Of a stretch of DNA of 40,150 nucleotides, positions 2,181 to 38,201 are shown piece after piece. The position numbers and the translations under genes were made by a program. Numbering within the stretch: the first letter of the stretch is position 1; each line of letters starts with the position of its first letter. Location: the NCBI GenBank assembly GCA_030917725.1, contig JAUPUE010000034.1:1-40150 (forward strand). Reading direction: 5' to 3'. This stretch comes from Patescibacteria group bacterium. GTDB taxonomy: Bacteria; Patescibacteriota; Minisyncoccia; Phycocordibacterales; EsbW-18. The notes below the pieces were generated by a model that worked only from the letters and a program-made list of their open reading frames with translations, did not search any database and was not told where the DNA came from.

Positions 2181-4907
2181 ATGGAACGCTTCTCAGTCAC
2201 CCCCGAAGCACAGCTGCGAACACCGCAGGAAGAACTCACGTTTTTGCGTGAGCGGCTCAAGACGCTCGAGAATGATCTCATCGAGAAACAAGAATCGCAT
2301 GAGCATGTTGTACATGAGGTTGTTAAGACCTACGCACAGCACGAGCCCAACAAAGTGCTCGCAAAAGGTCACGAGATGCTCAAGACTGAAGTCGATGCAA
2401 TTGTTCTCGACCTCGTGCCGGAGGCTCACGATGCTCAAATGGCCGAGCTTCTCACGATTCTCCAAGAGCGTGGTGTAAAGAACGCACTTTCTGTTGTCGA
2501 AAAACTCGGTGATCTTCACATCCAAGACGACTTCCACCGATTCTTGGCCGAATACATCAAGGCTGGTTACCGTGCACAGGGGATTAAAGAGCAGGGTCCG
2601 CTCTGGAAAGCACTTACGATGACGCTCTTCGAAGTGTCGTTGCCATTCTCTGACAAAGACGCGAAGGAGCGCCCACTCAAAGAGATGATCTCATCGATGG
2701 AACAGCTCTATGCTGGTTTGGGTTCCATTGCTTCTGGATCTGACCCTGATGTCTTCACCTTTGAAATCGCGGTTTCCGGTACGGGGGAAGAGGCGACGGT
2801 CTACTGTGCGGTGCCGACCGCCAAGCGGGAGCTTTTTGAAAAGCAGCTTCTTTCGGTTTTTCCACGAGCACATTTGGTTGAGACTAAGAACGACTACAAC
2901 ATCTTTTCATCAAAAGACGCTGGTACCGCAGCTTCGGTGGCCAAGTTCACCCGTGAGAGCGCGTATCCTCTCAAGACATACGAGCAGTTTGATTTTGACC
3001 CGATGAACATCACGCTCTCTGCTTTTGCAAAGCTCGCACACACTGGCGAGGGTGCAGCGTTGCAGCTCATTGTGCGTCCGGTGGGTGATAGCTACGTCAA
3101 ACGATATGGAAAGGCAATCGACAAGCTCCGCAAAGGAGAGAAGGCCAAAGAAGTACTCGCCGATGAATCAATCGTCAAAGATATTGCTATTGGCTTCAAA
3201 GATTTTTTCATAACAAAGAAAAAGGATGATAAGCCTGAGGAGAAAATTGTCGACGAGCGCGCGGTTGAGGCAGTAACAACGAAGATTGCATACCCAATTG
3301 TCGAAACCAATCTCCGCCTTGTCGTTTCGGCTGACACTCAAGCACGCGCCGAAGCCATTCTCGATAACCTCCAAGCAACATTCAACCAGTTTGAGCTCTC
3401 AACTGGTAACAGCTTTAAGTTTAACCGTATGAAGAAGGGGGGCTTGAACAGCTTCGTCAAAAATTATACCTTCCGTCTCTTCGAATCGGGCGAGACGTTG
3501 CCGCTTAACCTTCGTGAACTTTCGACAATCTTCCATTTACCATCGGGCAATGTCGATTCATCACGCGAGCTCAAGCGCGCCAAGTCCATGAGTGTTCCTG
3601 CACCCGTTGGTTTGCCAACCGAGGGTGTTTTGTTGGGCATGAACATCCATGGCAACGTTCAAACACCTATTCATATGACGGATGGCGATCGTTTGCGCCA
3701 CTTCTACTGTGTGGGACAAACCGGTGTCGGAAAGACGACAATCCTCAAGCAGATGATTATCCAAGACATCAAAAATGGAGATGGTGTCTGTATGATTGAC
3801 CCGCACGGGTCGGACCTCATGGAGGTGCTCGCTAATATTCCACCCGAGCGTGCGGACGATGTTATTTACTTTGATCCCGCATACACCGACCGACCGATGG
3901 GTCTCAACATGCTTGAGTATGATGTGACCAAGCCTGAGCAGAAGACGTTTATCGTCAACGAACTCTTCAGCATCTTCCAAAAGCTGTATGGTGCGAACCC
4001 TGAGAGTATGGGTCCGATGTTCGAGCAATATTTCCGTAACTCAACAATGCTCGTCATTGAAGACCCAGAGACCGGCAACACACTTTCGGACGTTGGTCGT
4101 GTCATGACCGACAAAGCCTTTCGTGACCTCAAGCTTTCACGTTGTAAAAACCCCATCGTTGTGCAGTTTTGGCGTGAGGTTGCCGAAAAGGCCGGGGGAG
4201 ATGCGGCGCTCGCGAACATCGTTCCGTACATTACCTCGAAGTTTGACGTGTTCTTGGCTAATGACATCATGCGGCCAATCATCACCCAAAAGAAATCTGC
4301 GTTCGATTTCCGCGACATCATGGACAATCGCAAGATTCTTTTGGTAAATCTCTCAAAGGGCCGCCTCGGAGAAATCAATGCGAGCCTCATTGGTCTCATC
4401 ATTGTCGGCAAGATTCTCATGGCGGCACTGTCGCGTGTCGGGATGTCCTCGGATGACATGCATCCGTTCTATCTCTACATCGATGAGTTCCAGAACATCA
4501 GTACCGATTCGGTTGCACAAATCTTGTCTGAGGCGCGTAAGTACAAGCTGAGCCTCAATATGTTCCATCAGTACATCAAGCAGTTGAGTGACACCATCAA
4601 AGATGCTGTGTTTGGCAACGTGGGAACGATGTGTGCGTATCGTGTTGGTTTTGAAGACGCCGAATTTCTCGAAAAGCAGTTCAGCCCCGCCGTTTCGGCA
4701 TATGACCTTATGAACGTCGACAACTTTAATGCCTTTATCAAAATGCTTGTGCGCAACAAAGCCGAGCGTCCCTTCTCAATCTATGTCCCCAAACCAGATG
4801 CTGGGGATCCGATGATGATTGAAAAATTGAAAGAGCTGTCCTATCTCAAATTTGGCAAGCCACGCGAGGAGATTGAAGAAGAACTCCGAAAGACATACGG
4901 GATGTAG
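2181..4907 (+). CDS. VirD4/TraD-like type IV coupling-protein-family P-loop ATPase with ~500-aa uncharacterised N-terminal region
   Basis: 908-aa ORF. Walker A FYCVGQTGVGKTT, MIDPHGSD, Walker B-like FYLYIDEFQN. TATACT at 2169-2174 lies 6 nt before the ATG. Confidence 0.7.
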   Translation: MERFSVTPEAQLRTPQEELTFLRERLKTLENDLIEKQESHEHVVHEVVKTYAQHEPNKVLAKGHEMLKTEVDAIVLDLVPEAHDAQMAELLTILQERGVKNALSVVEKLGDLHIQDDFHRFLAEYIKAGYRAQGIKEQGPLWKALTMTLFEVSLPFSDKDAKERPLKEMISSMEQLYAGLGSIASGSDPDVFTFEIAVSGTGEEATVYCAVPTAKRELFEKQLLSVFPRAHLVETKNDYNIFSSKDAGTAASVAKFTRESAYPLKTYEQFDFDPMNITLSAFAKLAHTGEGAALQLIVRPVGDSYVKRYGKAIDKLRKGEKAKEVLADESIVKDIAIGFKDFFITKKKDDKPEEKIVDERAVEAVTTKIAYPIVETNLRLVVSADTQARAEAILDNLQATFNQFELSTGNSFKFNRMKKGGLNSFVKNYTFRLFESGETLPLNLRELSTIFHLPSGNVDSSRELKRAKSMSVPAPVGLPTEGVLLGMNIHGNVQTPIHMTDGDRLRHFYCVGQTGVGKTTILKQMIIQDIKNGDGVCMIDPHGSDLMEVLANIPPERADDVIYFDPAYTDRPMGLNMLEYDVTKPEQKTFIVNELFSIFQKLYGANPESMGPMFEQYFRNSTMLVIEDPETGNTLSDVGRVMTDKAFRDLKLSRCKNPIVVQFWREVAEKAGGDAALANIVPYITSKFDVFLANDIMRPIITQKKSAFDFRDIMDNRKILLVNLSKGRLGEINASLIGLIIVGKILMAALSRVGMSSDDMHPFYLYIDEFQNISTDSVAQILSEARKYKLSLNMFHQYIKQLSDTIKDAVFGNVGTMCAYRVGFEDAEFLEKQFSPAVSAYDLMNVDNFNAFIKMLVRNKAERPFSIYVPKPDAGDPMMIEKLKELSYLKFGKPREEIEEELRKTYGM

Positions 4908-4916
4908 GGCAAAATA

Positions 4917-4945
4917 AAAACAACGACCGAAATCGTTGTTTTATT
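4917..4945. terminator. rho-independent terminator hairpin
   Basis: aaaacaacga-ccgaaa-tcgttgtttt followed by T-rich tail, between convergent genes. Confidence 0.7.
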
Positions 4946-4973
4946 GTAAGACGCCCCTCCTAGGCCCTCGTTT

Positions 4974-5237
4974 TTAGACGTTCCCCTCGGAAGGTTCAAT
5001 AACTCCTTCAGTTTCTGACATGTCGGGTTTCTTGCCAGCAGAACTTTCTTGTTCAGTTCGTCTAGCTTCTTCCTCGGCTTCCATCTCAGCTCCTGTGGTT
5101 TTATCAAAGTTCTCGACCTCTTTCCGTATTTCTGGGTTAGTACGCATTTTTTCAGCCCATGCAGCAGCATCTTTTTCGTCGTTCCTCATCCGTTCCTCCT
5201 CCAAATCCTCAGGAGTTCTGTGTGACATTCCTTCCAT
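4974..5237 (-). CDS. small acidic hypothetical protein (87 aa)
   Basis: ORF rich in E/K. TATTCT -10-like box lies exactly 6 nt upstream of the ATG on the minus strand. Confidence 0.5.
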   Translation of the reverse strand: MEGMSHRTPEDLEEERMRNDEKDAAAWAEKMRTNPEIRKEVENFDKTTGAEMEAEEEARRTEQESSAGKKPDMSETEGVIEPSEGNV

Positions 5238-5416
5238 ATATGTAGAATATGATTACTTTCAATACCCAAAGAATATCAATAATCCATTTAGTATCCAAAT
5301 AACCCCAAGGGTGCTTGTTCTGCGACATATATCTAGGATTTGTACATGGTTTTTATAGGGGGGTTATTTAGAGTAAGCTTTAGGGGATATTATTTCAGAC
5401 TATCTTAGTTATCTAT

Positions 5417-5896
5417 ATGAACTTCGAATCAGCGCCACAAGAGCCAACATCAGAACGATTTGGAACAAAAAAAGAAGAGTGGATGAACCGTTTAGGAAAA
5501 CAACCGTCCGGTGAGTTACCAAAGACAGAACAAGACTGGACAATCGATCCAGAGGCGTTAATGGAACAACAAGAAGAAGAAAAGAAACTAGCAGCACGAA
5601 TTGAAGAGTATTTTGCAAAAGAAGGAACTTCTAAAGAGGAGGTATATAGAATAGTTTCCAAAATGTTACAAGGCTGGGTCGGTATACACGATGGGTTCCC
5701 ATATCTTGTAGTAGAAGGAGAGGGGACTGAGGCTTACGAAAAAAATAGGCCGCTTCCTCCTGAGATGACGCAGACTATCTACAGAGCACTCATAAGGGTG
5801 CAAGAAAAAACAGAATCTCCACTCGGGGCTGCTGAAGATTTGTTTGAGCGAGATTTGAAAGATGAAAACAGATTTGGAGGGGAGGAGTCTAAATAA
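5417..5896 (+). CDS. hypothetical acidic protein with MNFESAP N-terminus
   Basis: 159-aa ORF in a visibly AT-rich island. Its N-terminal codons are shared with the 5923 gene (ATG AAx TTy GAA TCA GCx CCA). Confidence 0.6.
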   Translation: MNFESAPQEPTSERFGTKKEEWMNRLGKQPSGELPKTEQDWTIDPEALMEQQEEEKKLAARIEEYFAKEGTSKEEVYRIVSKMLQGWVGIHDGFPYLVVEGEGTEAYEKNRPLPPEMTQTIYRALIRVQEKTESPLGAAEDLFERDLKDENRFGGEESK

Positions 5897-5922
5897 GTCC
5901 ATAGCTTAAAAACTTTAGATAT

Positions 5923-7332
5923 ATGAAATTTGAATCAGCACCAGAGGAAAAAGAACCAACGAAGGAAATTCCTAAGCAGGAAACTACCGTGGAGGACATT
6001 GAGAAAGAGGTTGTAGGTGTAGATTCTGAGAAAAACAGAGCGGAACGTTTAGTCATTCTTCGGCAGAAGCAAATCGAGTTAAAAAAGGTAATGGAAATAC
6101 TCGATGAGAGTTTCCTCAGAGAGGATAAGGGGGAGGAACATGAAAAAAAGAAAGTAAACGGTGCTGAGACGTCGTTTTATATTAAAACCAAACTTCTTCC
6201 TGAGATGATCGCGTGGACCTTAAAAAGGGAAAAGGAAGGAAAAGATATCGATTTTCTTGAATATGTTCAAGAAGAGGACCTCTCCGACTTGGATCTGGAC
6301 ATCATCATCAAAGAAATAGATCGATACAACAATCGGAAAGAGGCGGTTCCAATGAAACAGGAAGCAATGCTGGCAAAAGCAGCTTTGTGCAACGATTTAA
6401 GGTCTGATGCGCATATGATTCTTGCGGAAATCGGAAATATCGATCCAGTCATGAAGGAGATAAAATTGGGACAACTAAAGGAGGATTTTGACGAGTGGTT
6501 CGATCGATTTTTCGAGAGACTGGAAGTAAAAATTGAATTGTGGCAAGAAGGCGTGCCCTTTTTGAATGTGATTTTTGAAAAGTTTTGGGATGGTCAGGGT
6601 ACGATTGATAAGATGTTCGCCAAGCTAAGTAAAAAGAGAATGGGTCTCATCAAGCACACATTCATGTTACGCGGTCTCGCTAGAAGAATTGAAATGGTGG
6701 TGGATTTTGCTGATAAGAGTGACAACGCAGAGGAAGTTAGACACTACGCCGCCGAGGCTAAGGGGTACACCAAGCTGATGGTTGAATGGAATAATGAATA
6801 TCGACGTTTACATAGATCCTCCACAAACTCAAATATTGATGGGGCATATGATGGGATTGTAGAGGGGGCCAACAAACTGGATGAATTAGCAATCATGGAG
6901 ATTTATCCAGACCAAGAAGGAGGGCGTGGTTACCGTAAATCACCCGAATTACCTCTAGGCCTAGATAAAAGAAAAAAGGAAATTTGTGGTTCCTTGTTGG
7001 TACAAATTAGAGAACACTACGATAAACGTTCTGGCATCGAAACACGGTTTGGTTTGAATGTTGGCGAAGACGAAAAACGCAGAATACGTCGGATGTTGGA
7101 GAATGAAGCTACAGATTTTTCAAAACTGGTGACGGAGATAAGTGATGAAAATAAAATCGACAGTCTATCTGAGGAAATTAACTTATTAAAATACTCTGCA
7201 CACCAAAAAAGACTTATTTTAAGGGAAATTTCTGAACTTGATCAATTAATTTTAGATGCAAAAAGTGGATCTGTCGTGAAAACAGCGCAGGAGAAACCCG
7301 GAATTGAAGAACCCGAAGCGCAGGCAGCATAA
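5923..7332 (+). CDS. hypothetical E/K-rich, probably coiled-coil protein with MKFESAP N-terminus
   Basis: 469-aa ORF, AT-rich, heavy E/K/L content. No recognisable enzymatic motif. Confidence 0.6.
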   Translation: MKFESAPEEKEPTKEIPKQETTVEDIEKEVVGVDSEKNRAERLVILRQKQIELKKVMEILDESFLREDKGEEHEKKKVNGAETSFYIKTKLLPEMIAWTLKREKEGKDIDFLEYVQEEDLSDLDLDIIIKEIDRYNNRKEAVPMKQEAMLAKAALCNDLRSDAHMILAEIGNIDPVMKEIKLGQLKEDFDEWFDRFFERLEVKIELWQEGVPFLNVIFEKFWDGQGTIDKMFAKLSKKRMGLIKHTFMLRGLARRIEMVVDFADKSDNAEEVRHYAAEAKGYTKLMVEWNNEYRRLHRSSTNSNIDGAYDGIVEGANKLDELAIMEIYPDQEGGRGYRKSPELPLGLDKRKKEICGSLLVQIREHYDKRSGIETRFGLNVGEDEKRRIRRMLENEATDFSKLVTEISDENKIDSLSEEINLLKYSAHQKRLILREISELDQLILDAKSGSVVKTAQEKPGIEEPEAQAA

Positions 7333-7345
7333 GACTGCTTAACAT

Positions 7346-8128
7346 ATGAGTTCACACGAATCTGGGCAACAAGAGGGTCAGCCTGAACCTGCAGAAAATA
7401 GGGAGGGAGTTCCTGGCGAAGACTACTCGAAAGAATTCGAGCGTAGGATGCTTGTGGTTGAGTCCGTCGATCCAAAGACCTACACGGCAGAGATGCGGGA
7501 CGAAGACCTCAAATATTTGGATGAATGGTTTCGGTATGAACTCGGGAGACATAAGATGTTGTTGAAACAACACGCGGAGGAACTGAGAAAAAAGACACGA
7601 GAAAGTTCAGGGGATGCTGTTGCGCGGCAAGAGGTTATGGAATGGACTCAAGAAACACTTGAGGGGCTTAATGAAGCGCTTAATTCGAAGAAAAAAGAAA
7701 TCTGGAGTTTAAAGGATAGAGTTTTACAAACCTTCCTATATAAAAACACCCCAAAAGAAGAGGGAAAGAAGGAAGAGAAACCAAATAATGAAAAAGAAGG
7801 TGAAGTGGATAGTGCGCAAATAGAACAATCTGTCCTAGACAGCTTCAGTATTACCAGTGGAGAATACAAGATTATTCTTGAGAGTATTAGCACACTGAAT
7901 AATGCTGATTTTCGACGATTACTTACAAATGTGATGGAAGTTGAAACGGCAGGTGCAAAAGAAGTGAGAGATGCGTATTTGGAACTTACGCGAGAACTCC
8001 ATCCAGATACGGCGAAGACACACCTTGAGAGGGAGATTAAAGGCGCAAAGATACAGGTGGTCAATAATATGTATCAGGAGTACAAAAGACGTTTTGGAAA
8101 AGAGGGGAGTTTTGTTACGTGGGAATAA
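7346..8128 (+). CDS. hypothetical protein with C-terminal J-domain-like module (HPD motif)
   Basis: C-terminus AKEVRDAYLELTRELHPDTAKTHLEREIKGAKIQVVNNMYQEYKRRFG matches the helix II - HPD - helix III layout of DnaJ J domains. Confidence 0.6.
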   Translation: MSSHESGQQEGQPEPAENREGVPGEDYSKEFERRMLVVESVDPKTYTAEMRDEDLKYLDEWFRYELGRHKMLLKQHAEELRKKTRESSGDAVARQEVMEWTQETLEGLNEALNSKKKEIWSLKDRVLQTFLYKNTPKEEGKKEEKPNNEKEGEVDSAQIEQSVLDSFSITSGEYKIILESISTLNNADFRRLLTNVMEVETAGAKEVRDAYLELTRELHPDTAKTHLEREIKGAKIQVVNNMYQEYKRRFGKEGSFVTWE

Positions 8129-18390: not shown

Positions 18391-19485
18391 CTAGGCTTTC
18401 TTTTGGGCGTAGATAAAGGCGTTCTTCTCGCTGTAACTAGGGATGAGGACGTCCTTTCTCTTGAAATTGCCGAACTCTTCTCGCATGACCTCCTCCATTA
18501 TTTTTGCTGAATTGAGGTATTTAGGTGTGACTTTTGCTGCTCCTGCCTGTGCACTGAACCAACCACCACGCTTGAGAACGCGGTTTGAGAATGAGAACAC
18601 CTTTTTGTAGAAATCTGCGACGCCCTTTGCGGCTTTCTTGCTTCCGATGGGGTTATCGGTTAGATCGCTCGCGACACAGTCGAAGAGTCCGTTTTTTTCG
18701 GTGTCGTATGTCTTAACATAGTGAAGCGCGTCACCGATGATGAGATGAACGTTCGGATGGGAGAAGATTTTCTGATTGAGATGTTTTTTTGAGAAATGCA
18801 CGACTTCTTGGTCGAGATCAACGACGGTGATTTTGATATTTGGATTTATCTTGAGTGCCGTTTCAGCAACATATCCATCACCACCACCCAAAATGAGTAG
18901 GTTTTTTGTCTCGGGCGTGATCTTGTCGAGAATCGCCTTGTCGTATGTTTCATGGTCGAGTTCTGAGGTTTGAACAAGTCCGTCGATGACCATACACCGT
19001 CCGTACTTTTCGGTATTGATGATGACAATCTTTTGGAATCCCGAGTCTACTTCGGCGAACTTCTCGGTCACCTTGATTCGTTCTATCTTTCCGTTCGCGT
19101 AAATAGGGGATTCGAGATACTCCATGACCACATATCCACGTCGTATCTTGTGGAGCTCGGTTCGTTTGTGGCGAACGGCTTTTTTGAGGTACTCAACCGC
19201 TTTGAATGTTTCTTCATCGTGACTACAGCTGAAGATGTCGCACGCCACATAGTTATATTCGGGCCATGTATGGAACGATATGTGAGAAGAGGACAGAAGG
19301 AGGAACCCAGTAATTCCTTGCGGATTGAACTGGTGAAAATAGCTATGGAGAATTTCCATGTCAGCAGCGGCAGCGGCCTGCGGAAGAGATTTCTGCCAGA
19401 AATCCAAAGAATCAAGCTGGTGTGGATCGCATCCGAAGAAGTCGACCGTATAATGCACACCCTTTGGTTTCAATTGTTTTTTCAT
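18391..19485 (-). CDS. fused S-adenosylmethionine decarboxylase (SpeH-type) / spermidine synthase-like aminopropyltransferase
   Basis: N-terminus VDFFGC...LLLSSSHISFHTWPE...CDIFSC (AdoMetDC). C-terminus LILGGGDGY, VVDLD, DLTDNPIG (SpdSyn). Alternative upstream ATG at 19542 overlaps the next gene. Confidence 0.8.
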   Translation of the reverse strand: MKKQLKPKGVHYTVDFFGCDPHQLDSLDFWQKSLPQAAAAADMEILHSYFHQFNPQGITGFLLLSSSHISFHTWPEYNYVACDIFSCSHDEETFKAVEYLKKAVRHKRTELHKIRRGYVVMEYLESPIYANGKIERIKVTEKFAEVDSGFQKIVIINTEKYGRCMVIDGLVQTSELDHETYDKAILDKITPETKNLLILGGGDGYVAETALKINPNIKITVVDLDQEVVHFSKKHLNQKIFSHPNVHLIIGDALHYVKTYDTEKNGLFDCVASDLTDNPIGSKKAAKGVADFYKKVFSFSNRVLKRGGWFSAQAGAAKVTPKYLNSAKIMEEVMREEFGNFKRKDVLIPSYSEKNAFIYAQKKA

Positions 19486-19492
19486 ACGGTTT

Positions 19493-19942
19493 CTATTGCT
19501 CGATTTCGGAAGAGGTTGCTGATTCCTCCGATTCTTGTGCATCGGGACTCTCCTCGGGTTCGATGGGGTTTATGATTGCCTCTGCACATATTTCATCCTC
19601 ATCGATGGTTTCCGAAGAACAATATGTAATTGCACAGCCGACCTCACTTTCATCACACGAAAGTCCAGGGCATTCTTCCGAAGGTCCACATTCCTCAATA
19701 TTCTTTGCCGACTTTAATACCTTCTTGTACGGAGTGATGTCGCACTCAGGGTCGTCTTCGGGCGAACAGTCAGCGACAAAGCATGATTCGCTTTGTGGAT
19801 CGCAGGTGACATGGGCGAGGATGTCGAAATTCCTGTCGATGACGAACGCTTTGTACTTGTAGGCTCCGACGGCAAGAATTGCCAAAACGACAAAGAGGAA
19901 GAGATAACGGGAGGCCTTATCCATATCACGGTAAGTATACAT
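19493..19942 (-). CDS. membrane-anchored or secreted Cys-rich, very acidic hypothetical protein
   Basis: N-terminal TM helix RYLFLFVVLAILAVGAY, then 12 Cys in an acidic ~90-aa region and an E/S-rich tail. Confidence 0.55.
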   Translation of the reverse strand: MYTYRDMDKASRYLFLFVVLAILAVGAYKYKAFVIDRNFDILAHVTCDPQSESCFVADCSPEDDPECDITPYKKVLKSAKNIEECGPSEECPGLSCDESEVGCAITYCSSETIDEDEICAEAIINPIEPEESPDAQESEESATSSEIEQ

Positions 19943-28182: not shown

Positions 28183-28192
28183 GGAAACACTG

Positions 28193-28265
28193 TCCGTCCC
28201 CATGGACTCGAACCATGAACCGCCGAGGTATAAGCTCGGTGCTCTAACCATTGAGCTAGGGACGG
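28193..28265 (-). tRNA. tRNA-Ile with anticodon UAU (reads AUA); C1-G72 acceptor end; CCA not encoded
   Basis: CCGTCCC-TA-GCTC-AATGGTTA-GAGC-A-CCGAG-CTTATAC-CTCGG-CGGTT-CATGG-TTCGAGT-CCATG-GGGACGG-A folds as a canonical cloverleaf. Confidence 0.8.
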
Positions 28266-28299: not shown

Positions 28300-30087
28300 A
28301 TGAATGCAACTCCCAAAAAAGCCTCAACGGTAAGCACCGGTAGGATTTTTGCTGTCTTCTGGGAGCAAATACAGCGACGATTGCCTGCCTTTTTTGCACT
28401 TGTTCTGATGGTTGTTGTGGCTATCGTGGCAAATACGGTTGCTCCAATCTACTACAAGCGGTTTTTTGATGTCCTTGGAGCAGGGAAGCTTGACTCAGCG
28501 TTGATACACACGGCCATGGTTGCTCTGATTATGGCGTTCTTCATGAAGTTCGTTCGTTGGGGTGGGTGGCGTATCGCTGACTTCATCGCGAACCCTTTCA
28601 CTGCGGGCACGATGAAAGACTTGGTGATGATGGGGTATGAACGTCTCCTCGGACATTCATATAAGTTCTTCAGCGATACGTTCGTTGGGACGCTCACACG
28701 TAGACTCACAAAATTCTCGTACGCATTCGAGAGTATTTTTGACCAGCTGTCCTATCAGCTCGTGCCGCTCGTCGTCTCGAGTATCGTCATCTTCTTTGTG
28801 GTCAATCAGCGTTCGCCAATGGTCGCATACATACTGTTTGGATGGATGTTTCTGATGGTCTTCGCGAATTATCTTGTTATCAAGTGGAAGCAAAAATATG
28901 AGGAGAAGCGCAGCGCGGCAGACTCGAAGCTCTCGGGGACACTCTCTGACAGCATGACGAACAGCAGCACCATCAAGCTTTTTGCCAGCTCAAAACATGA
29001 GATGTCGTTGTTTGAGGCTGTAGCAGAGGATGTGCGAAGCATTCGTTTGTGGACATGGAACATCGACTCACTGATTCGCACGGTCCAAGGTTTCCTGACG
29101 ATCATCGTTGAGATCGCTGTGATGTTCTCCGCGTTCAAACTCTATCAGAAGGGTCAATTGACGCTCGGTGACTTCGTGCTCTTCCAGACATACATCCTTA
29201 CACTCACCGAACAGATGTGGCAATTCGGATGGGTGCTTAAGCATCTTTTTGAAGCTTTTGCCGATGCAAAGGAGATGGTCGAGATAATCGACAATCCATA
29301 CGATGTCCAAGATGCACCTGGTGCCGGTGTCCTTAAGGTGACAGAAGGGAAGATCGACTTCGCTGACGTCGTTTTCAACTTCAACGAAACACGCAAAGTG
29401 CTCGACGGTTTCTCGCTCTCAATTACCCCAGGAGAAAAGGTTGCGCTTATTGGTCCTTCGGGTGCCGGCAAGACAACAGTCACACGGCTTCTTTTCCGTT
29501 TCCATGACGTCACCTCAGGTTTGATAACAATTGACGGGCAGGATATCTCAAAGGTCACACAGGATAGTCTGCGCAATGCTATCGGGCTCGTGCCACAGGA
29601 GCCAATTCTCTTCCACCGTTCGCTCATGGACAACATCCGCTACGGACGCCGCGATGCGACCGATGAAGAGGTTCTCGAAGCTGCTAAGAAGGCACGCTGT
29701 CACGAGTTCATCTCATCGCTTCCTGATGGATACGAGACCATGGTCGGTGAGCGCGGTGTGAAGCTCTCGGGTGGTGAACGTCAGCGCGTCGCTATCGCTC
29801 GCGCGATTCTCAAAGACGCTCCGATTCTTGTGCTTGACGAAGCAACATCAAGCCTCGACTCCGAATCGGAACACCTCATCCAAGAAGCGCTCAACATCCT
29901 TATGGAAGGGAAGACGGTCATCGTCATCGCGCACCGTCTCTCGACTATCATCACCATGGATCGCATCATCGTCATCGAAGGCGGCAACATCCGCGCGATG
30001 GGTACCCACGACGAACTTCTTAAGAAAGACGACCTCTACAAAAAGCTTTGGTCCATTCAGGCAGGAGGGTTCTTGAAGGAGGAGTAA
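28300..30087 (+). CDS. ABC transporter, fused permease/ATPase (MsbA/multidrug exporter type)
   Basis: Six N-terminal TM segments. GPSGAGKTT, LSGGERQRVAIARA, ILVLDEATSSLD. TATCCT lies 6 nt before the ATG. Confidence 0.9.
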   Translation: MNATPKKASTVSTGRIFAVFWEQIQRRLPAFFALVLMVVVAIVANTVAPIYYKRFFDVLGAGKLDSALIHTAMVALIMAFFMKFVRWGGWRIADFIANPFTAGTMKDLVMMGYERLLGHSYKFFSDTFVGTLTRRLTKFSYAFESIFDQLSYQLVPLVVSSIVIFFVVNQRSPMVAYILFGWMFLMVFANYLVIKWKQKYEEKRSAADSKLSGTLSDSMTNSSTIKLFASSKHEMSLFEAVAEDVRSIRLWTWNIDSLIRTVQGFLTIIVEIAVMFSAFKLYQKGQLTLGDFVLFQTYILTLTEQMWQFGWVLKHLFEAFADAKEMVEIIDNPYDVQDAPGAGVLKVTEGKIDFADVVFNFNETRKVLDGFSLSITPGEKVALIGPSGAGKTTVTRLLFRFHDVTSGLITIDGQDISKVTQDSLRNAIGLVPQEPILFHRSLMDNIRYGRRDATDEEVLEAAKKARCHEFISSLPDGYETMVGERGVKLSGGERQRVAIARAILKDAPILVLDEATSSLDSESEHLIQEALNILMEGKTVIVIAHRLSTIITMDRIIVIEGGNIRAMGTHDELLKKDDLYKKLWSIQAGGFLKEE

Positions 30088-30096
30088 TGTCTATAT

Positions 30097-30585
30097 ATGG
30101 ATCCCGAAGAAATAAAAAAATTAATAGATGGGGATCCGGACACGTTGATCAAACGAGCCGGAGAATTGGGTATAGATTTCTCCGATATGGGCAGAAGTCT
30201 TGCTAGAGGAATGGTTACAGGAAAGTTCTCTTTAACGGATGAGCAATTCGAAACCATTGATTTTGTATTCTGGATTTCTTATTTTGTTGAACGTGCCGCT
30301 GAGGAGTTTATAACTTTTCCGGAAGTTAGTGTTGGAGCAAGAAAGGAAGCAATGGACGTATTAATTGGCAAGTTACACTTCGGTGACAAAATAAAGGTTA
30401 TCGAGGAGCTTTATATGGGGAAAAAAGACAAACTCATAATCTTGATGCGCAAAATACAGGATTTACGAAATGATATTGCTCATGGGCGTTTTGATAAATT
30501 AGATTATGGAGGTTATTCCTTAAGTGATAATAGAGGCAAATTAAAATTGGTTGCAAACTTAAGAGACGCCCTTCTCAAAAAGTAA
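30097..30585 (+). CDS. hypothetical protein with C-terminal HEPN-like Rx4H motif (possible Abi/toxin-type RNase)
   Basis: AT-rich 162-aa ORF wedged between the ABC stop and the recG stop. LRNDIAHGRF lies near the C-terminus. Confidence 0.35.
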   Translation: MDPEEIKKLIDGDPDTLIKRAGELGIDFSDMGRSLARGMVTGKFSLTDEQFETIDFVFWISYFVERAAEEFITFPEVSVGARKEAMDVLIGKLHFGDKIKVIEELYMGKKDKLIILMRKIQDLRNDIAHGRFDKLDYGGYSLSDNRGKLKLVANLRDALLKK

Positions 30586-30591
30586 CTCTTC

Positions 30592-32871
30592 CTACTCAAA
30601 ATGCACCTCGCCTCGCTCGGCGAGGGCTTTTTGTAATTCGGGATATTTCTTAAGGAATACGTCTGATTCGACGATTCGTTTTGCTTCGGCACGCGCAGCT
30701 TCAACAAGCTTGAGATTCTTGAGCGCTTCCATACCGATATCGGAGACACCCCACTGTTTCTTGCCCGAAAGATCCCCAGAACCGCGGAGCATGAGGTCGT
30801 GCTCGGCGAGCTCGAATCCATTGGCGGCTTTGGTGAGTGCTTTGAGACGATCGAGCGTCGGTTGTGACTTGGATTCGGTGAAGAGATAACAATATGCCTG
30901 GTGATTACTGCGGAGAACGCGGCCGCGGAGCTGGTGGAGCTGTGAGAGACCAAAGCGCTCGGCACCTTCGATGAGGATGATCGTCGCATTCGGCACGTTC
31001 ACACCAACCTCAACGACTGATGTTGCAACGAGGATCTTGATCGAGCCTTCGGTGAACGCTTTCATCATGTCTTCTTTCTTTTCCGATTTCATCTTGCCGT
31101 GGAGCACACCAACCGAGAACTCGGGGAAGACCTCTCGCGCGAGACGCTTGGCTTCTTCTTCAACAGACTTTGCTTGGAGTGCCATCTCGTCGGTCTCGTC
31201 CGGTGCGTCGATGCGCGGGCAGATAACGTATGCCTGTCGTCCTGCTTCCAATTCTTGTCGTAGGTGTTCATACACTTCTTTGCGTCCCGAAGGCGGCACG
31301 TTCTTTGTGATGATCGGTTTACGTCCTGGTGGCATCACATCAAGCAGCGTGAGATCGAGGTCTCCATATATGGTGAGCGCCAACGTGCGCGGGATCGGTG
31401 TCGCGGTCATGCTTAAAAGGTGTGGGAGGTTCTTGTCTTTGCGTGCCAAGGCCGCGCGCTGTTTGGTGCCAAAGCGGTGCTGCTCATCGATGATGATGTA
31501 GGCGAGATGTTTCCATTCGACCGTCTTTTGAATGAGCGCATGCGTGCCGATAAGGATTGGGATCTCACCGTTCGCGACCCATTTCAACAATTGAGAGCGA
31601 GAGATATTGGTCCAGCCGTTTGGGTTAAGTTTGGACGGGAACTTTTTGCAGCCCGATGACGTGATGAGTGCAACGTTAATCGGCAGTCCACGATAGAGCT
31701 CAACAAACGATTCAAAATGCTGTGTCGCCAAAATCTCTGTTGGTGCCATGAGCGCAACCTGCAAGTTGCCGAAGTCTTGTTTGCCATCAGCAACCTGCGC
31801 CATTTTCTGCAAATCAGATTTCTTTGGGAATGCTGGACCGCTTTGAACCATCTTGGGTGGGCGTGTGGTGACAACAGCAAAGCTCGTTGCTGCTGCGACG
31901 AATGTTTTTCCCGAACCGACGTCTCCTTCGAGGAGGCGTGACATCGCGCGCGTGCCTGCAAAGTCAGCAAAGATGTCTTCGAGCGCTTTTGACTGCGCGG
32001 ATGTTGGTTTGAAAGGGAACTTGGAGAGGAAACCATCAACACTTTCTTTTGTTGGGCGAATGTCCCACGTTGGGAGCGAGTCGGTCATGTGTCGCTCCTG
32101 CTGTTTTTTGAGTTGGATGAAGAAGATTTCTTCGAATGCAAATCGTTTACGCGCCGCGTCAGCATCTTTGTTGTTCTCGGGCGCGTGAATCCACACGAGC
32201 GCTGTGCCAAGCGATGGGAGATTGAGACGTTTGAGAACATCGGCAGGCAGAGGATCGACAATCTGTTTCCCCGCCTCTGGCGGGACCCCGCTGGAAGCGG
32301 TGGCGAGCGCTCCGCCTTTGATGAGCTTTTTAATCGCGTAGTAGATCCAGCGCGAGGTGACACCACGGCTCTCGGGATAGACAGGGAAGAGTGTCCCGGC
32401 TGTTGGCTCGCCGTGTTCATCTCCATCCTCTTGAACAAAGAGCGAGTCGGTTTCGTCAGGAATCACCGATGCGTGCGTTATTGCGGGGTTCGACAGATAG
32501 AATTCACCACTGCGCTCCGAGATTGTTCCCTCGACTTTCACCGTTGCGCCTTCGGGGAACATCTTTGCGATGTAGGGTTGATGGAACCACACGGCTTTCA
32601 CTTTGCCGCTCACCGTGTTGATGGTCGCCTGTGCCATCGGGATCTTCGACTTCCATCCTTTTGAAACTTTTGCTTTCGAGATTGTTCCGTAGAGCGTTAC
32701 CTTTTGTCCTTTTGCGAGACTTCCTGTTTGCGTCGCGCCTGAGAGATCGTCGTATCGGGCAGGGAAGTGATAGAAGAGATCGCGAACAGTCGTAACACCA
32801 AGACGCGTGAGCGCTTTGGTGTGGGATTCGTCCACGCGCAGGGTCTCACTGAGCTTGTCGGAGAGATTCAT
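30592..32871 (-). CDS. recG: ATP-dependent DNA helicase RecG
   Basis: Wedge/OB N-terminus. GDVGSGKT, IIDEQHRFG, SMTATPIPRT, QLHQLRGRVLRS. Start MNLSDKL at 32871 is preceded by TACAAT plus 6 nt. Confidence 0.9.
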   Translation of the reverse strand: MNLSDKLSETLRVDESHTKALTRLGVTTVRDLFYHFPARYDDLSGATQTGSLAKGQKVTLYGTISKAKVSKGWKSKIPMAQATINTVSGKVKAVWFHQPYIAKMFPEGATVKVEGTISERSGEFYLSNPAITHASVIPDETDSLFVQEDGDEHGEPTAGTLFPVYPESRGVTSRWIYYAIKKLIKGGALATASSGVPPEAGKQIVDPLPADVLKRLNLPSLGTALVWIHAPENNKDADAARKRFAFEEIFFIQLKKQQERHMTDSLPTWDIRPTKESVDGFLSKFPFKPTSAQSKALEDIFADFAGTRAMSRLLEGDVGSGKTFVAAATSFAVVTTRPPKMVQSGPAFPKKSDLQKMAQVADGKQDFGNLQVALMAPTEILATQHFESFVELYRGLPINVALITSSGCKKFPSKLNPNGWTNISRSQLLKWVANGEIPILIGTHALIQKTVEWKHLAYIIIDEQHRFGTKQRAALARKDKNLPHLLSMTATPIPRTLALTIYGDLDLTLLDVMPPGRKPIITKNVPPSGRKEVYEHLRQELEAGRQAYVICPRIDAPDETDEMALQAKSVEEEAKRLAREVFPEFSVGVLHGKMKSEKKEDMMKAFTEGSIKILVATSVVEVGVNVPNATIILIEGAERFGLSQLHQLRGRVLRSNHQAYCYLFTESKSQPTLDRLKALTKAANGFELAEHDLMLRGSGDLSGKKQWGVSDIGMEALKNLKLVEAARAEAKRIVESDVFLKKYPELQKALAERGEVHFE

Positions 32872-32954
32872 ATATCTATTGTAGCTGATGGGAGATGAGA
32901 TAGTTTTTAAGCTCTTGACAAAATGTCCGACCACTTGACTTATGCTTTAAAAGC

Positions 32955-32982
32955 GTTATAATACAAGGTAGAGTTTCAATTC
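32955..32982 (+). promoter_or_regulatory. sigma70-like promoter TTGACT-N16-TATAAT (cassette C), followed by a ~100-nt structured leader
   Basis: ttgacttatgctttaaaagcgttataat. Leader hairpins ctttgg/ccaaag and gaagtc/gacttc. Confidence 0.55.
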
Positions 32983-33080
32983 TGTTCCGCTTTGGTCCTT
33001 ACCAAAAGAATGCTCAGAAATTATTGAGTTGAAGTCATAGACTTCCAACAGCTTTCGACGCCCTCAAGGAGGGGGCCACA

Positions 33081-33983
33081 ATGAAGAAAGTCTCTCGCGT
33101 AGTTGCTCTCGTGCTTTTGTTGGCGATGGCACCCATCGCCGCATCGGCGACTGAGGGCTTCTCGATGGCCCTCACGGATTCGTCCGGTGAGAAGGTCATC
33201 GAGTTGAAGCGGTTTTTCGCTCAGTTCGACTGGCGGAGTGACGGAAGTGGTGACACGATTCGTCGTGTCCGCCCGTTGCTCTACCTGGGCCACGGCACCT
33301 GCCGTGGCAAGGTGGAGATGAACTTGGCGGCCACCGAGGTCGCAAACGACGCCAATGGAAATTGGTTGGAGATCGCCACTCTTGAGTGCGCGGTTTCTGC
33401 CAACACCACTGTGTCGGTGGGCCGGCTTTTCTTGTCCGGTCCTCGTTCGACTCCTCCGCCATTCCTCTTGAGGACGGTGGAGTACCCAAAGTCGAACACG
33501 TTTGCCGCGTATGCGTACGGAGTGCAACTCCAACGCACATTTGGTGAATGGAATTTCGTCGTCGACGTTACCGGCGATTCTGGCCGGCAGTTCAATGACG
33601 ACGGCAACTTCGATCGAATCGAATCGTCTTTCCGGATCGGGCGCAAGCTCGGTTCGGTGGGAACGCTCTCATTCACGTCACAGCTTTCTCGGGACTTTAC
33701 CCGGGTCGGCCTCGACTGGATGAGTTCCTCAGACCAGAAGCTCAATGTGTGGGCCGGCGTCTACTACGACGACGGCACCACCGAGAAGCTGCTCGGGATG
33801 GCACAGGTCTCTTATCCGCTCGGACGGTACATCCGTCCGCACGTGATGTGGGACCATCGCCCCGATGGTTCGGAAGAATGGACCGTCGGCACAGAAGTTT
33901 TTGTCACCCCGCACGTTCGCGTGCTTGGTGACTACGAAACCCGTGCTGACCGAATCCTCGCTCGGCTACAGTTCCACTGGTAA
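33081..33983 (+). CDS. secreted OMP-like beta-barrel protein (cassette C gene 1)
   Basis: Signal peptide MKKVSRVVALVLLLAMAPIAASA. Alternating-hydrophobic strands in the C-terminal 170 aa. C-terminal LARLQFHW. SD AAGGAGG. GC-rich. Confidence 0.6.
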   Translation: MKKVSRVVALVLLLAMAPIAASATEGFSMALTDSSGEKVIELKRFFAQFDWRSDGSGDTIRRVRPLLYLGHGTCRGKVEMNLAATEVANDANGNWLEIATLECAVSANTTVSVGRLFLSGPRSTPPPFLLRTVEYPKSNTFAAYAYGVQLQRTFGEWNFVVDVTGDSGRQFNDDGNFDRIESSFRIGRKLGSVGTLSFTSQLSRDFTRVGLDWMSSSDQKLNVWAGVYYDDGTTEKLLGMAQVSYPLGRYIRPHVMWDHRPDGSEEWTVGTEVFVTPHVRVLGDYETRADRILARLQFHW

Positions 33984-34004
33984 CGACCCCAAGGAGGGGA
34001 AGCG

Positions 34005-34715
34005 ATGAAGCTCAACAAGCTCGTGTTCATTCTCGTGCTCGCCATCGTGGCGGGTATCACCGTCAACAGCGCTTCGGCGCAGACCAACTACACCGTCACC
34101 ACGAAGCTCATCGACAAGTACTTGGGATCGAACGGAGGGGTCTTCTTCGATGGCCCCGTCGTTCAGTCCGATGTTCTCAGATGCTTCGAAAACGGCATCT
34201 GTGCCAACCTCTGGGTGTCGCGAGGTGATCGTGGCCAGTGGGGTGAGGAGACCGATTCCGAGGTCGACATCAACGGTGAGTGGTCGGATGAGAACTTCAA
34301 CGTTGGCATCCTCTACATCTTCTCGCCACCGTCAGCGAGCAACGTTCTCAACCTGTACGCCACGGCGACGACCGACGAGCTCGTGGGTGGTGTCAGGGCT
34401 TACTTCAAGCTCGAGCACTATCTGGCGATGGAAGGAAACGACCCGGGTCGCGGGTCGTTCACACACCTCGGCCTCAAGGGTGATAGGACGCTCGGCAACT
34501 TCAACTTCGGTTGGACGGTCGAGGTGTTCTATGACACCGGTGCGTTCGGATTCTCCGATGGCACCTTGGCCGCCGCGAAGGCGACGCTGCTCTATGATTT
34601 CGGTCAGCTTTCGCTCGGGCCGATGATCAAGGCGACGACGCCCATCCACATCGCCAACGACGACGGTCGCGAGTTCGACTATGCGGTCGGCCTCGTCAGC
34701 CAGTTCACCTTCTAG
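34005..34715 (+). CDS. secreted OMP-like beta-barrel protein, possibly Gcw_chp/TIGR02001-like (cassette C gene 2)
   Basis: Signal peptide MKLNKLVFILVLAIVAGITVNSASA. C-terminal YAVGLVSQFTF is an OMP-type terminal Phe signature. SD AAGGAGG. Confidence 0.6.
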   Translation: MKLNKLVFILVLAIVAGITVNSASAQTNYTVTTKLIDKYLGSNGGVFFDGPVVQSDVLRCFENGICANLWVSRGDRGQWGEETDSEVDINGEWSDENFNVGILYIFSPPSASNVLNLYATATTDELVGGVRAYFKLEHYLAMEGNDPGRGSFTHLGLKGDRTLGNFNFGWTVEVFYDTGAFGFSDGTLAAAKATLLYDFGQLSLGPMIKATTPIHIANDDGREFDYAVGLVSQFTF

Positions 34716-34725
34716 GAGGTGCTCC

Positions 34726-34902
34726 ATGCAGACCTTCTTGATCATCCTCGCGGTGGTCTACGTCATCGGCGGATGCTGTGCGGTTTGGGTGGAAGAGTCA
34801 CTTCACTTCACTCACAAGCCCGGCCGCATGGCCCGCCGATTCATCCTCTGGCCGATTAACCCGATGTGGGCGATCGCCATCACGTTTCCTCGCGATTACT
34901 GA
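34726..34902 (+). CDS. 58-aa membrane protein (cassette C gene 3)
   Basis: AGGAGG-tgctcc-ATG. MQTFLIILAVVYVIGGCCAVW TM helix. Confidence 0.5.
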   Translation: MQTFLIILAVVYVIGGCCAVWVEESLHFTHKPGRMARRFILWPINPMWAIAITFPRDY

Positions 34903-34990
34903 GCATTCTGAACGTATCAAAACAGCCCCCAAAGGACGGGGCAAAAGAGGGCCGGTTTCGCTTCGTGCGGACCGGTCCTTTCTCTATCTC

Positions 34991-35054: not shown

Positions 35055-35082
35055 TTGACACAGGTCTTTTTATGAGTACAAT
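35055..35082 (+). promoter_or_regulatory. candidate rRNA promoter TTGACA-N16-TACAAT
   Basis: ttgacacaggtctttttatgagtacaat, ~280 nt upstream of the 16S. A weaker TTGCCT-N18-GATAAT lies at 35110-35139. Confidence 0.5.
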
Positions 35083-35333: not shown

Positions 35334-35357
35334 TATGAAACATGGTGACATGTTTTT

Positions 35358-36926
<1,569 letters not shown>

Positions 36927-37131: not shown

Positions 37132-37159
37132 TTGACAGCAGTCTTTTGGATGTTATAAT
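37132..37159 (+). promoter_or_regulatory. consensus sigma70 promoter TTGACA-N16-TATAAT (cassette D)
   Basis: ttgacagcagtcttttggatgttataat. Confidence 0.65.
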
Positions 37160-38127: not shown

Positions 38128-38201
38128 GCGCGTGTAGCTCAGCTGGTTAGAGCACGTCACTGATAATGACGAGGTCATAGGTTCGAATCCTATCACGCGC
38201 A
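38128..38201 (+). tRNA. tRNA-Ile (anticodon GAU)
   Basis: GCGCGTG-TA-GCTC-AGCTGGTTA-GAGC-A-CGTCA-CTGATAA-TGACG-AGGTC-ATAGG-TTCGAAT-CCTAT-CACGCGC-A. TTGAGA-N17-TATAGT upstream. Confidence 0.9.

Follow-up and report, generated by a model that had tools for sequence, protein, structure and literature searches.

The window analysed here is a stretch of 40,150 nucleotides (nt) from contig JAUPUE010000034.1 of a Patescibacteria group bacterium. This text concerns an operon of three genes, g1, g2 and g3, which are + strand open reading frames (ORFs) located between recG (30592–32934, − strand) and the 16S gene (35356–36925, + strand). Genes g1 and g2 encode exported proteins predicted to form β-barrels of the outer-membrane type, and g3 encodes a small membrane protein. 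The best-supported statement about the locus is that g1 and g2 encode envelope barrels which are native to a lineage of the Candidate Phyla Radiation (CPR), evolve fast and are probably abundant.

The operon starts with a sigma-70-type promoter, TTGACT-N16-TATAAT (32935–32962, + strand), which matches the consensus at 11 of 12 positions. It is followed by a 5′ leader of about 110 nt (32969–33080, + strand), with the Shine-Dalgarno sequence AAGGAGG at 33066–33072. Gene g1 (33081–33983) encodes a protein of 300 residues, g2 (34005–34715) one of 236 residues, and g3 (34726–34902) one of 58 residues, all on the + strand. A Shine-Dalgarno sequence, AAGGAGG or AGGAGG (the latter for g3), lies 6–8 nt before the ATG of each gene. 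The original prediction, made from the sequence alone, had described a self-contained unit between recG and the rRNA region with this promoter and three genes each led by such a site, and all of these elements were located. No paralogue of g1 or g2 was found elsewhere in the window.

The promoter is all but invariant across six related loci. Together with the first 80 nt or so of the leader, it displays 97–98% identity between strains, also where the downstream gene differs. The leader had been described as structured and about 100 nt long. The leader itself and its conservation stand, but the structure was dropped: the fold is no more stable than that of shuffled sequence (z −0.98), covariation or compensatory changes were not seen among the six strains, and no Rfam family matched. 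We infer that the leader is an mRNA-stabilising or regulatory element. At the other end of the operon, 3′ of g3, a hairpin with a 12+3 bp stem followed by UCUCU (34946–34981, + strand) is present in both the minimum-free-energy and the centroid folds, and it stands between the operon and the rRNA promoter (35055–35082). The hairpin thus exists as predicted, but its reading as a canonical terminator is unsupported, the terminator scan having made no call, the fold having a z of −0.93 and the U tail being weak.

By inspection, residues 1–23 of g1 (nt 33081–33149) form a signal peptide with a K/R n-region, a hydrophobic core and a cut between ASA and T. The N-terminus reads MKKVSRVVALVLLLAMAPIAASA up to the cut and TEG after it, and is conserved in homologues; the protein ends in RLQFHW. 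No Pfam or NCBIfam family, Porin_1, Porin_4 and Porin_O_P included, matched g1. The Foldseek matches of its AlphaFold2 (AF2) model are weak, and all are porins or other outer-membrane barrels, 16-strand porins among them.

Evidence that does not depend on the g1 model is stronger. An exhaustive profile search at E ≤1e-3 yielded representatives of 151 clusters formed at 50% identity, and 90 of these reached E ≤1e-10. Sub-threshold matches of family members were to Porin_O_P (6 members), OMP_b-brl (4), Porin_4 (3) and BBP2 (2), and further to DUF2490, KdgM and Autotransporter. The curated porin cut-offs were reached by no member checked; the Porin_O_P match in the member P0054 scores 18.7 bits against a cut-off of 20.9. 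A 53-member alignment gave best E values of 2e-4 (Porin_4) and 9e-4 (Porin_O_P), and the family profile matches a designed 12-strand transmembrane barrel in the PDB with an E of 5e-5. The family displays about 14–17 amphipathic β segments, and its period-2 (β) amphipathicity has a z of 5.4 relative to column-shuffled controls. A C-terminal aromatic residue (F, W or Y) occurs in 123 of 150 representatives and is F in 113. The consensus of the C-terminus is hydrophobic-x-hydrophobic-R-hydrophobic-Q-hydrophobic-R-F. This pattern has the form of the β-signal that the β-barrel assembly machinery (BAM) reads in diderm bacteria. When the strand faces were compared, the hydrophobic face was not significantly the more variable in g1. 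The g1 protein is probably an outer-membrane-type β-barrel, predicted to be larger than that of g2 and porin-like. Profile–profile comparison finds the g1 and g2 families unrelated (probability 6%). No relatives of g1 were found in viral contigs, and none of the family members scanned has an S-layer homology (SLH) or other wall-binding domain.

Every named member of the wider family of g1 is from a metagenome-assembled genome (MAG) of Candidatus Wolfebacteria, Candidatus Paceibacterota or the "Patescibacteria group". With the closer relatives, all named ones are from Wolfebacteria, Paceibacterota, Patescibacteria group, Parcubacteria or Saccharibacteria MAGs. Distant members occur singly on contigs as long as 479 kb, surrounded by housekeeping genes (secA, murB, mreB, murA, frr, rpsO and pnp). 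The g1 family is a previously unnamed family of putative barrels, found across CPR lineages. No description of such a family was found in the literature on Gcw_chp and on CPR with β-barrel, porin or BamA.

About 23 of the 150 listed representatives are long forms of 460–790 residues, in which the family match starts more than 220 residues in. Five of the long forms, a class that includes P0039, P0052 and P0127, were read or aligned. Their N-terminal module consists of about three hydrophobic helices and bears an invariant WP motif; after it come a charged linker, a segment resembling a signal peptide, and the barrel. A polytopic membrane module at the N-terminus suggests tethering to the producer's own membrane, and its presence argues that the putative barrel of the long forms works beside the producer's own cytoplasmic membrane. 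The WP-motif module might be a tethering or assembly module.

Gene g3 encodes an N-terminal hydrophobic helix, a basic loop and the segment ILWPINPMW. Its stretch RRFILWPINPMW looks like the WP-motif module of the long g1-family forms. The similarity is not significant: a hidden Markov model (HMM) of the module gave 2.7 bits, and hhalign gave 15.0, with shuffled sequences at 9.2 ± 1.6 (maximum 15.2). The idea that g3 is the stand-alone module was therefore rejected as a result and kept as a lead. No Pfam or NCBIfam family matched g3.

The signal peptide of g2, by inspection, comprises residues 1–25 (nt 34005–34079), again with a K/R n-region and a hydrophobic core, and with the cut between NSASA and QT. 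Its N-terminus, MKLNKLVFILVLAIVAGITVNSASA followed after the cut by QTN, is conserved in homologues, and the protein ends in SQFTF. The AF2 model of g2 contains 12 antiparallel strands, with a predicted local distance difference test score (pLDDT) of 71.2 and a predicted template-modelling score (pTM) of 0.66. Foldseek against the PDB gave 45 matches at E ≤1e-3, all of them outer-membrane barrels and none a soluble protein. They include KdgM, FapF, Pla/OmpT, intimin/invasin, the Hbp autotransporter domain, OmpG, PcoB and general porins. The strands have a hydrophobic face, with a mean Kyte-Doolittle value of +1.5, and a polar face with −0.7, and the period-2 amphipathicity has a z of 3.6 relative to shuffled controls. 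Variability is slightly higher on the hydrophobic face (p 0.046), the pattern expected for an exterior facing lipid. The model thus predicts that g2 is an outer-membrane-type transmembrane β-barrel. The Sec signal peptides, the β-strand periodicity and the aromatic C-termini LQFHW and SQFTF, which had suggested barrels in the original prediction, are all present in g1 and g2. A sequence search of the PDB with the g2 profile returned nothing meaningful.

Whether g2 belongs to the Gcw_chp/TIGR02001 family of outer-membrane proteins, which it had been said to resemble, was also examined. The g2 of the window has no match to Pfam Gcw_chp (PF09694) at E ≤10, and none to NCBIfam TIGR02001 (TorF family putative porin). 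Three of eight g2-family members touch Gcw_chp. Only P0004, at 80% identity to g2, reaches the gathering cut-off, with 24.9 bits against 24, in a match covering profile positions 32–117 of 230 (86 positions); P0003 (20.6 bits) and P0005 (20.2 bits) stay under it. For TIGR02001 the best relative is again P0004, with 16.3 bits against a cut-off of 47.15. The resemblance therefore holds marginally for some homologues and not for g2 itself: the likeness to Gcw_chp/TorF appears real but remote, and by curated criteria g2 is no member.

The genome is CPR-like, as had been supposed. Near-identical contigs have been submitted as MAGs of Candidatus Parcubacteria and Saccharibacteria. The contig of the Candidatus Parcubacteria MAG has a 16S gene 100% identical to that of the window over 1,464 aligned nt (positions 1–1100 and 1207–1570) and a RecG 96% identical. 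Among GTDB representative genomes, g1 is carried by a single one, a MAG submitted as uncultured Candidatus Saccharibacteria, and scans for g1 in metagenomes and in GTDB gave one locus each. At normally universal primer and probe sites the 16S gene has mismatches: 3 at EUB338, 1 at 515F, 2 at 1392R and 5 at 1492R. Standard probes and primers may therefore miss the lineage. The gene content of the window, with a VirD4-like protein, many ORFs without family match and small housekeeping genes, is typical of CPR.

The composition of the operon differs from that of the window. Its coding span has a GC content of 0.586, with a window mean of 0.497. Sliding segments of 1822 nt have a mean of 0.495 (standard deviation 0.035), and 2 of 767 reach the operon value; the operon is the 1.8 kb with the highest GC in the window, in agreement with the earlier remark that it is visibly richer in GC than its flanks. 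GC content at third codon positions (GC3) is 0.69–0.80 in the operon genes and about 0.32–0.59 in most other genes of the window. Across the related strains, every gene behind the conserved promoter has a GC3 of 0.70–0.82. This includes a second type of g2, 26–29% identical to that of the window, and an unrelated 232-residue helical membrane protein that fills the g1 slot in locus L007. An extra gene just upstream of the promoter in some strains has a GC3 of only 0.51–0.54. High GC3 goes with the transcription unit, whichever gene sits in it. The genes for L20 and IF3 were used for comparison, no others in the window being clearly highly expressed, and the preference of the operon genes for C-ending (pyrimidine-ending) codons is common to both. 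A distant g1-family member in a Wolfebacteria genome of 39% GC is also richer in GC3 than its neighbours. We read the composition as a probable expression-linked bias, possibly with a recombination-linked bias added.

The barrel proteins diverge much faster than RecG. Across related strains, identity to the window is 96.7–100% for 16S, 89–97% for RecG by tblastn (94.5–98.8% in global codon alignments), 77–97% for g3, 70–84% for g1, and 79%, about 50% or 26–29% for g2, depending on the strain. The nonsynonymous divergence (dN) of the barrel proteins is 10–25 times that of recG. Its ratio to synonymous divergence (dS) is 0.15–0.24 for g1, 0.20–0.34 for g2 and 0.015–0.05 for recG. Evolution is thus fast, yet not under positive selection overall. 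In sliding comparisons g2 forms a sharp valley of 29–70% nucleotide identity between flanks of 90–100%. For the g3 protein, identity is 97% to L007 and 77% to L001; the corresponding values for g2 are 51% and 26–29%. From g3 through 16S the window is nearly identical to L007 (g3 dS 0.08), and the neighbouring g2 has a dS of 1.45; the contrast reveals a recombination mosaic.

Gene content varies as well. In L007 the 232-residue helical membrane protein stands in place of g1, and in L003 g3 is replaced by a different hydrophobic ORF of 41 residues. Between recG and the promoter, L003 (2341–3234), L005 (6041–6838) and L007 (8230–9057) carry an extra gene, which encodes a secreted Ig-like protein with Kre9_KNH and TIG domains. 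The window lacks this gene and has about 26 nt (32906–32931) in its place. The high dN and the strain-variable gene content together suggest a recombining surface-protein island.

Other variable segments were observed nearby. The ABC transporter gene near recG (28300–30087, + strand) is a second highly divergent locus, with 66–69% protein identity between strains and a dS of 1.3–1.5; in those codon alignments RecG of the same strains is 95–99% identical. A strain-variable slot (30097–30585, + strand) separates the ABC transporter gene from recG. Here it holds an ORF of 162 residues with a GC content of 0.37 and no family match; elsewhere it holds a glyoxalase (L001), an NYN-domain protein (L005) or a methyltransferase (L007). 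Within the 16S gene, a block of about 100–200 nt (36386–36585) has 58–69% identity to L007 and L001, and the rest of the gene 99–100%. This block is a strain-variable helix or a replaced segment.

We interpret the locus, with a probability of about 0.6, as an envelope operon native to a CPR bacterium of the Parcubacteria/Paceibacteria type and strongly expressed there, not as foreign DNA. The near-consensus promoter and the conserved leader would drive three genes with strong Shine-Dalgarno sites. The g1 and g2 proteins would be exported by Sec, their signal peptides being cut after ASA, and the mature proteins would fold into closed amphipathic barrels of the outer-membrane type. Our best guess is that the barrels are placed in an outermost layer, hydrophobic or proteinaceous, of the cell itself, where they may act as surface channels and contact proteins, and that g3 may be their partner in the cytoplasmic membrane. 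Because they are exposed, the barrel proteins would diversify quickly, and the gap between recG and 16S would behave as a recombining surface-protein island. For location, we rank the cell's own outermost layer first, on account of the N-terminal membrane fusions, the β-signal-like end and the expression signals of a major protein; it is followed by a host membrane, a non-membrane β protein and the envelope of an ordinary diderm, in that order.

Several points weigh against this interpretation. The AF2 model of g1, built on a shallow alignment of 11 sequences, is all-β but of low confidence (pLDDT 45.5), and its Foldseek matches are weak (best E 2.4e-3). The structural check proposed with the original prediction thus favoured a barrel for g2 and gave a poor model for g1. 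The g2 model itself comes from 14 sequences, and one of five models was confident. The loops of g2 are not more variable than its strands, a poor fit to simple selection on exposed loops. High expression of the operon is a probable reading of its promoter and codon bias. Moreover, G-ending codons are in excess in g1 and g2 (0.74–0.86) but not in L20 and IF3 (0.49–0.58), so that expression bias explains the composition only partly. CPR cells are also reported to lack an outer membrane (PMC7137472, PMC6744442), which leaves the barrels no known compartment and no known insertase. The view that CPR lack an outer membrane, on which the original prediction had relied, is that of the literature: CPR are regarded as monoderm and without outer-membrane proteins, and microscopy shows no outer membrane (PMC6744442, PMC7137472, PMC12857230, 10.1101/2021.05.31.446380).

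The original prediction had offered a very recent import from a diderm, and had raised chimeric assembly at the junctions as a concern. Either would make the locus diderm DNA in a CPR contig, and the high GC of the locus could be read in this way. So could the marginal resemblance of the g2 family to Gcw_chp/TorF and its confinement, as far as recovered by a search that was not exhaustive, to a narrow clade. The Gcw_chp/TorF family is proteobacterial. Chimeric assembly is excluded in practice: a g1 identical to that of the window occurs on 14 contigs from several sequencing runs, and the junctions recur at 100% identity in other samples, the left one in L010 and the right one, including the full 16S gene, in L011. 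The order recG, promoter, barrel genes, 16S is found in L001, L002, L003, L005, L007/L008 and L015. The dS of g1 from the window (0.59–0.90) tracks that of recG (0.45–0.75), which with the kept synteny indicates vertical inheritance and not recent import. No close diderm homologue of g1 or g2 was found among 5.8 billion clustered proteins. With the g1 family spread across CPR and the high GC3 following the promoter and not the gene, recent import was rejected, and we regard it as very improbable. On this sequence evidence, the putative barrel genes are native to the CPR lineage, not borrowed. A native operon might still encode something other than membrane barrels, such as β-rich secreted or wall-associated proteins, for example an S-layer-like coat or ligand-binding barrels, with a likeness to outer-membrane proteins confined to the sequence pattern and a template-free model. 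The poor g1 model, the alternation of hydrophobicity that soluble β proteins also display, the weak statistics of the variable hydrophobic face and the monoderm description of the lineage would all agree with this. It is nonetheless improbable, as transmembrane outer-membrane barrels account for every one of the 45 significant structural matches to g2, a plug-free 12-strand barrel cannot hold a packed hydrophobic core, and the terminal Phe motif and the matches to porin families and to the designed barrel point to the membrane.

If the proteins are membrane barrels, the membrane may be that of another cell, as the original prediction had speculated for a host's outer membrane. By analogy with Bdellovibrio PopA, which is reported to enter prey membranes (PMC12228718), g1 and g2 might be secreted and inserted in a host-cell membrane as pores or anchors for nutrient uptake or attachment. 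CPR are host-dependent epibionts (PMC12857230) that reportedly lack an outer membrane themselves (PMC7137472, PMC6744442), and fast diversification with cassette swapping would fit an arms race with a host. Yet the polytopic module of the long forms suggests tethering to the producer's own membrane, the conserved β-signal-like C-terminus suggests that the producer has a dedicated machine for their assembly, the operon has no linked delivery system, and no host is known for the lineage. We consider this reading possible but unlikely. A C-terminus of this kind across about 150 clusters would also be expected if an Omp85-type machine reads it, that is, if the lineage or part of the CPR is diderm or has a cryptic outer layer with a BAM-like insertase, the barrels being ordinary porins. 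Few CPR lineages have been imaged so far, and envelope data are lacking (PMC8871954). Against this, surveys find outer-membrane proteins, TonB-ExbBD and PilQ missing in CPR (PMC6744442, PMC7137472), and CPR are placed in a monoderm Chloroflexi/CPR clade that lost porins (10.1101/2021.05.31.446380). About 37 ORFs of the window were scanned and none matched an outer-membrane biogenesis family, 40 kb being a small sample. This diderm or cryptic-layer reading has, in our estimate, a rather slim chance.

A wider conjecture may be offered, tentatively and at low odds. Many CPR may not be strictly monoderm, and may have kept or built an outer hydrophobic layer with a phylum-wide family of porin-like barrels that end in a β-signal-like C-terminus. 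The barrels would be assembled by an unrecognised insertase or without BAM. The WP module, present in about one seventh of the family, would take part in assembly or tethering, and g3 would perhaps be its stand-alone form.

CPR make up a large share of bacterial diversity, and models of envelope evolution treat them as monoderms that lost porins. A native, conserved and apparently highly expressed family of putative CPR barrels with a β-signal-like end does not fit that picture. It could be a relic of a diderm ancestor, belong to an outer layer of a new kind, or serve as a tool directed at the membranes of hosts. Its members are defined proteins that lend themselves to localisation, folding and recording, so that each of these readings is open to direct test. 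Their hypervariability at strain level marks the barrels as likely points of contact with hosts or phages; to our knowledge, almost nothing is known of such contact points for CPR other than Saccharibacteria.

The window has other features of its own. A tRNA-Ile with anticodon UAU (28192–28265, − strand) is located between the genes for cytidylate kinase and the ABC transporter. Most bacteria read AUA with a lysidine-modified CAU tRNA, and a UAU tRNA-Ile is uncommon. The 16S gene, ending at 36925, is not followed by a 23S gene but by a gap of about 1.2 kb and then tRNA-Ile(GAU) at 38128; no 23S gene was found in the remaining 3 kb of the window. The gap holds small ORFs and a second strong promoter, TTGACA-N16-TATAAT (37132–37159), which is conserved in L001, L003 and L007. 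A gene for a VirD4-like type IV coupling protein lies at 2181–4907 (+ strand), and 3′ of it a block of low GC (about 0.40–0.43, 5000–8100) contains ORFs without family match. The region 2181–8128 is possibly part of a CPR type IV secretion or pilin region. The ORF at 18391–19542 (− strand) carries S-adenosylmethionine decarboxylase and spermidine synthase domains in one frame, and the two polyamine-pathway enzymes appear to be fused.

Among known systems, the g2 model is most readily compared with the small 12-stranded outer-membrane barrels KdgM/NanC, FapF, intimin/invasin and the autotransporter β-domains. It resembles them in its 12 antiparallel strands and similar size, in a polar lumen face and a hydrophobic outer face, and in a cleavable signal peptide with a C-terminal F-x-F. 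The template-modelling scores are 0.52–0.72 to KdgM and, query-normalised, 0.57–0.59 to FapF, with a Foldseek probability of 1.0. It differs in lacking membership at the sequence level, as neither Pfam KdgM nor Pfam Autotransporter matches g2. These barrels belong to diderms, whereas the host group of g2 is described as having no outer membrane, with no BAM known. With Gcw_chp/TorF, g2 shares a length of about 235 residues, a signal peptide and a terminal Phe, though it comes from a CPR genome and not from Proteobacteria.

The g1 family resembles Porin_O_P, Porin_4, OMP_b-brl and BBP2/OmpL-like proteins in its β segments and Phe-ending C-terminus. It differs from general porins in its CPR distribution, and in that long forms, where read, carry the N-terminal helical membrane module, which is not seen in classical porins. 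Bdellovibrio PopA shows no sequence or structural match to g1 or g2. The likeness is that of a barrel of a cell living on other bacteria, with a possible action on the membrane of another (PMC12228718). PopA comes from a diderm, which has BAM, and assembles into lipid-trapping pentamers, whereas here there is no sign of oligomers or of delivery. The remaining comparison is with the β-barrel toga arrays of Thermotoga and with SLH-porins such as OmpM and the SlpA of Deinococcus, abundant barrels that form or populate an outermost layer in Terrabacteria, the larger clade containing CPR (PMC10160955, 10.1101/2021.05.31.446380). The g1 family differs from these proteins by the absence of SLH and wall-binding domains in the members scanned. 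The strong promoter and codon bias of the operon would, by analogy only, fit a major envelope protein of this kind.

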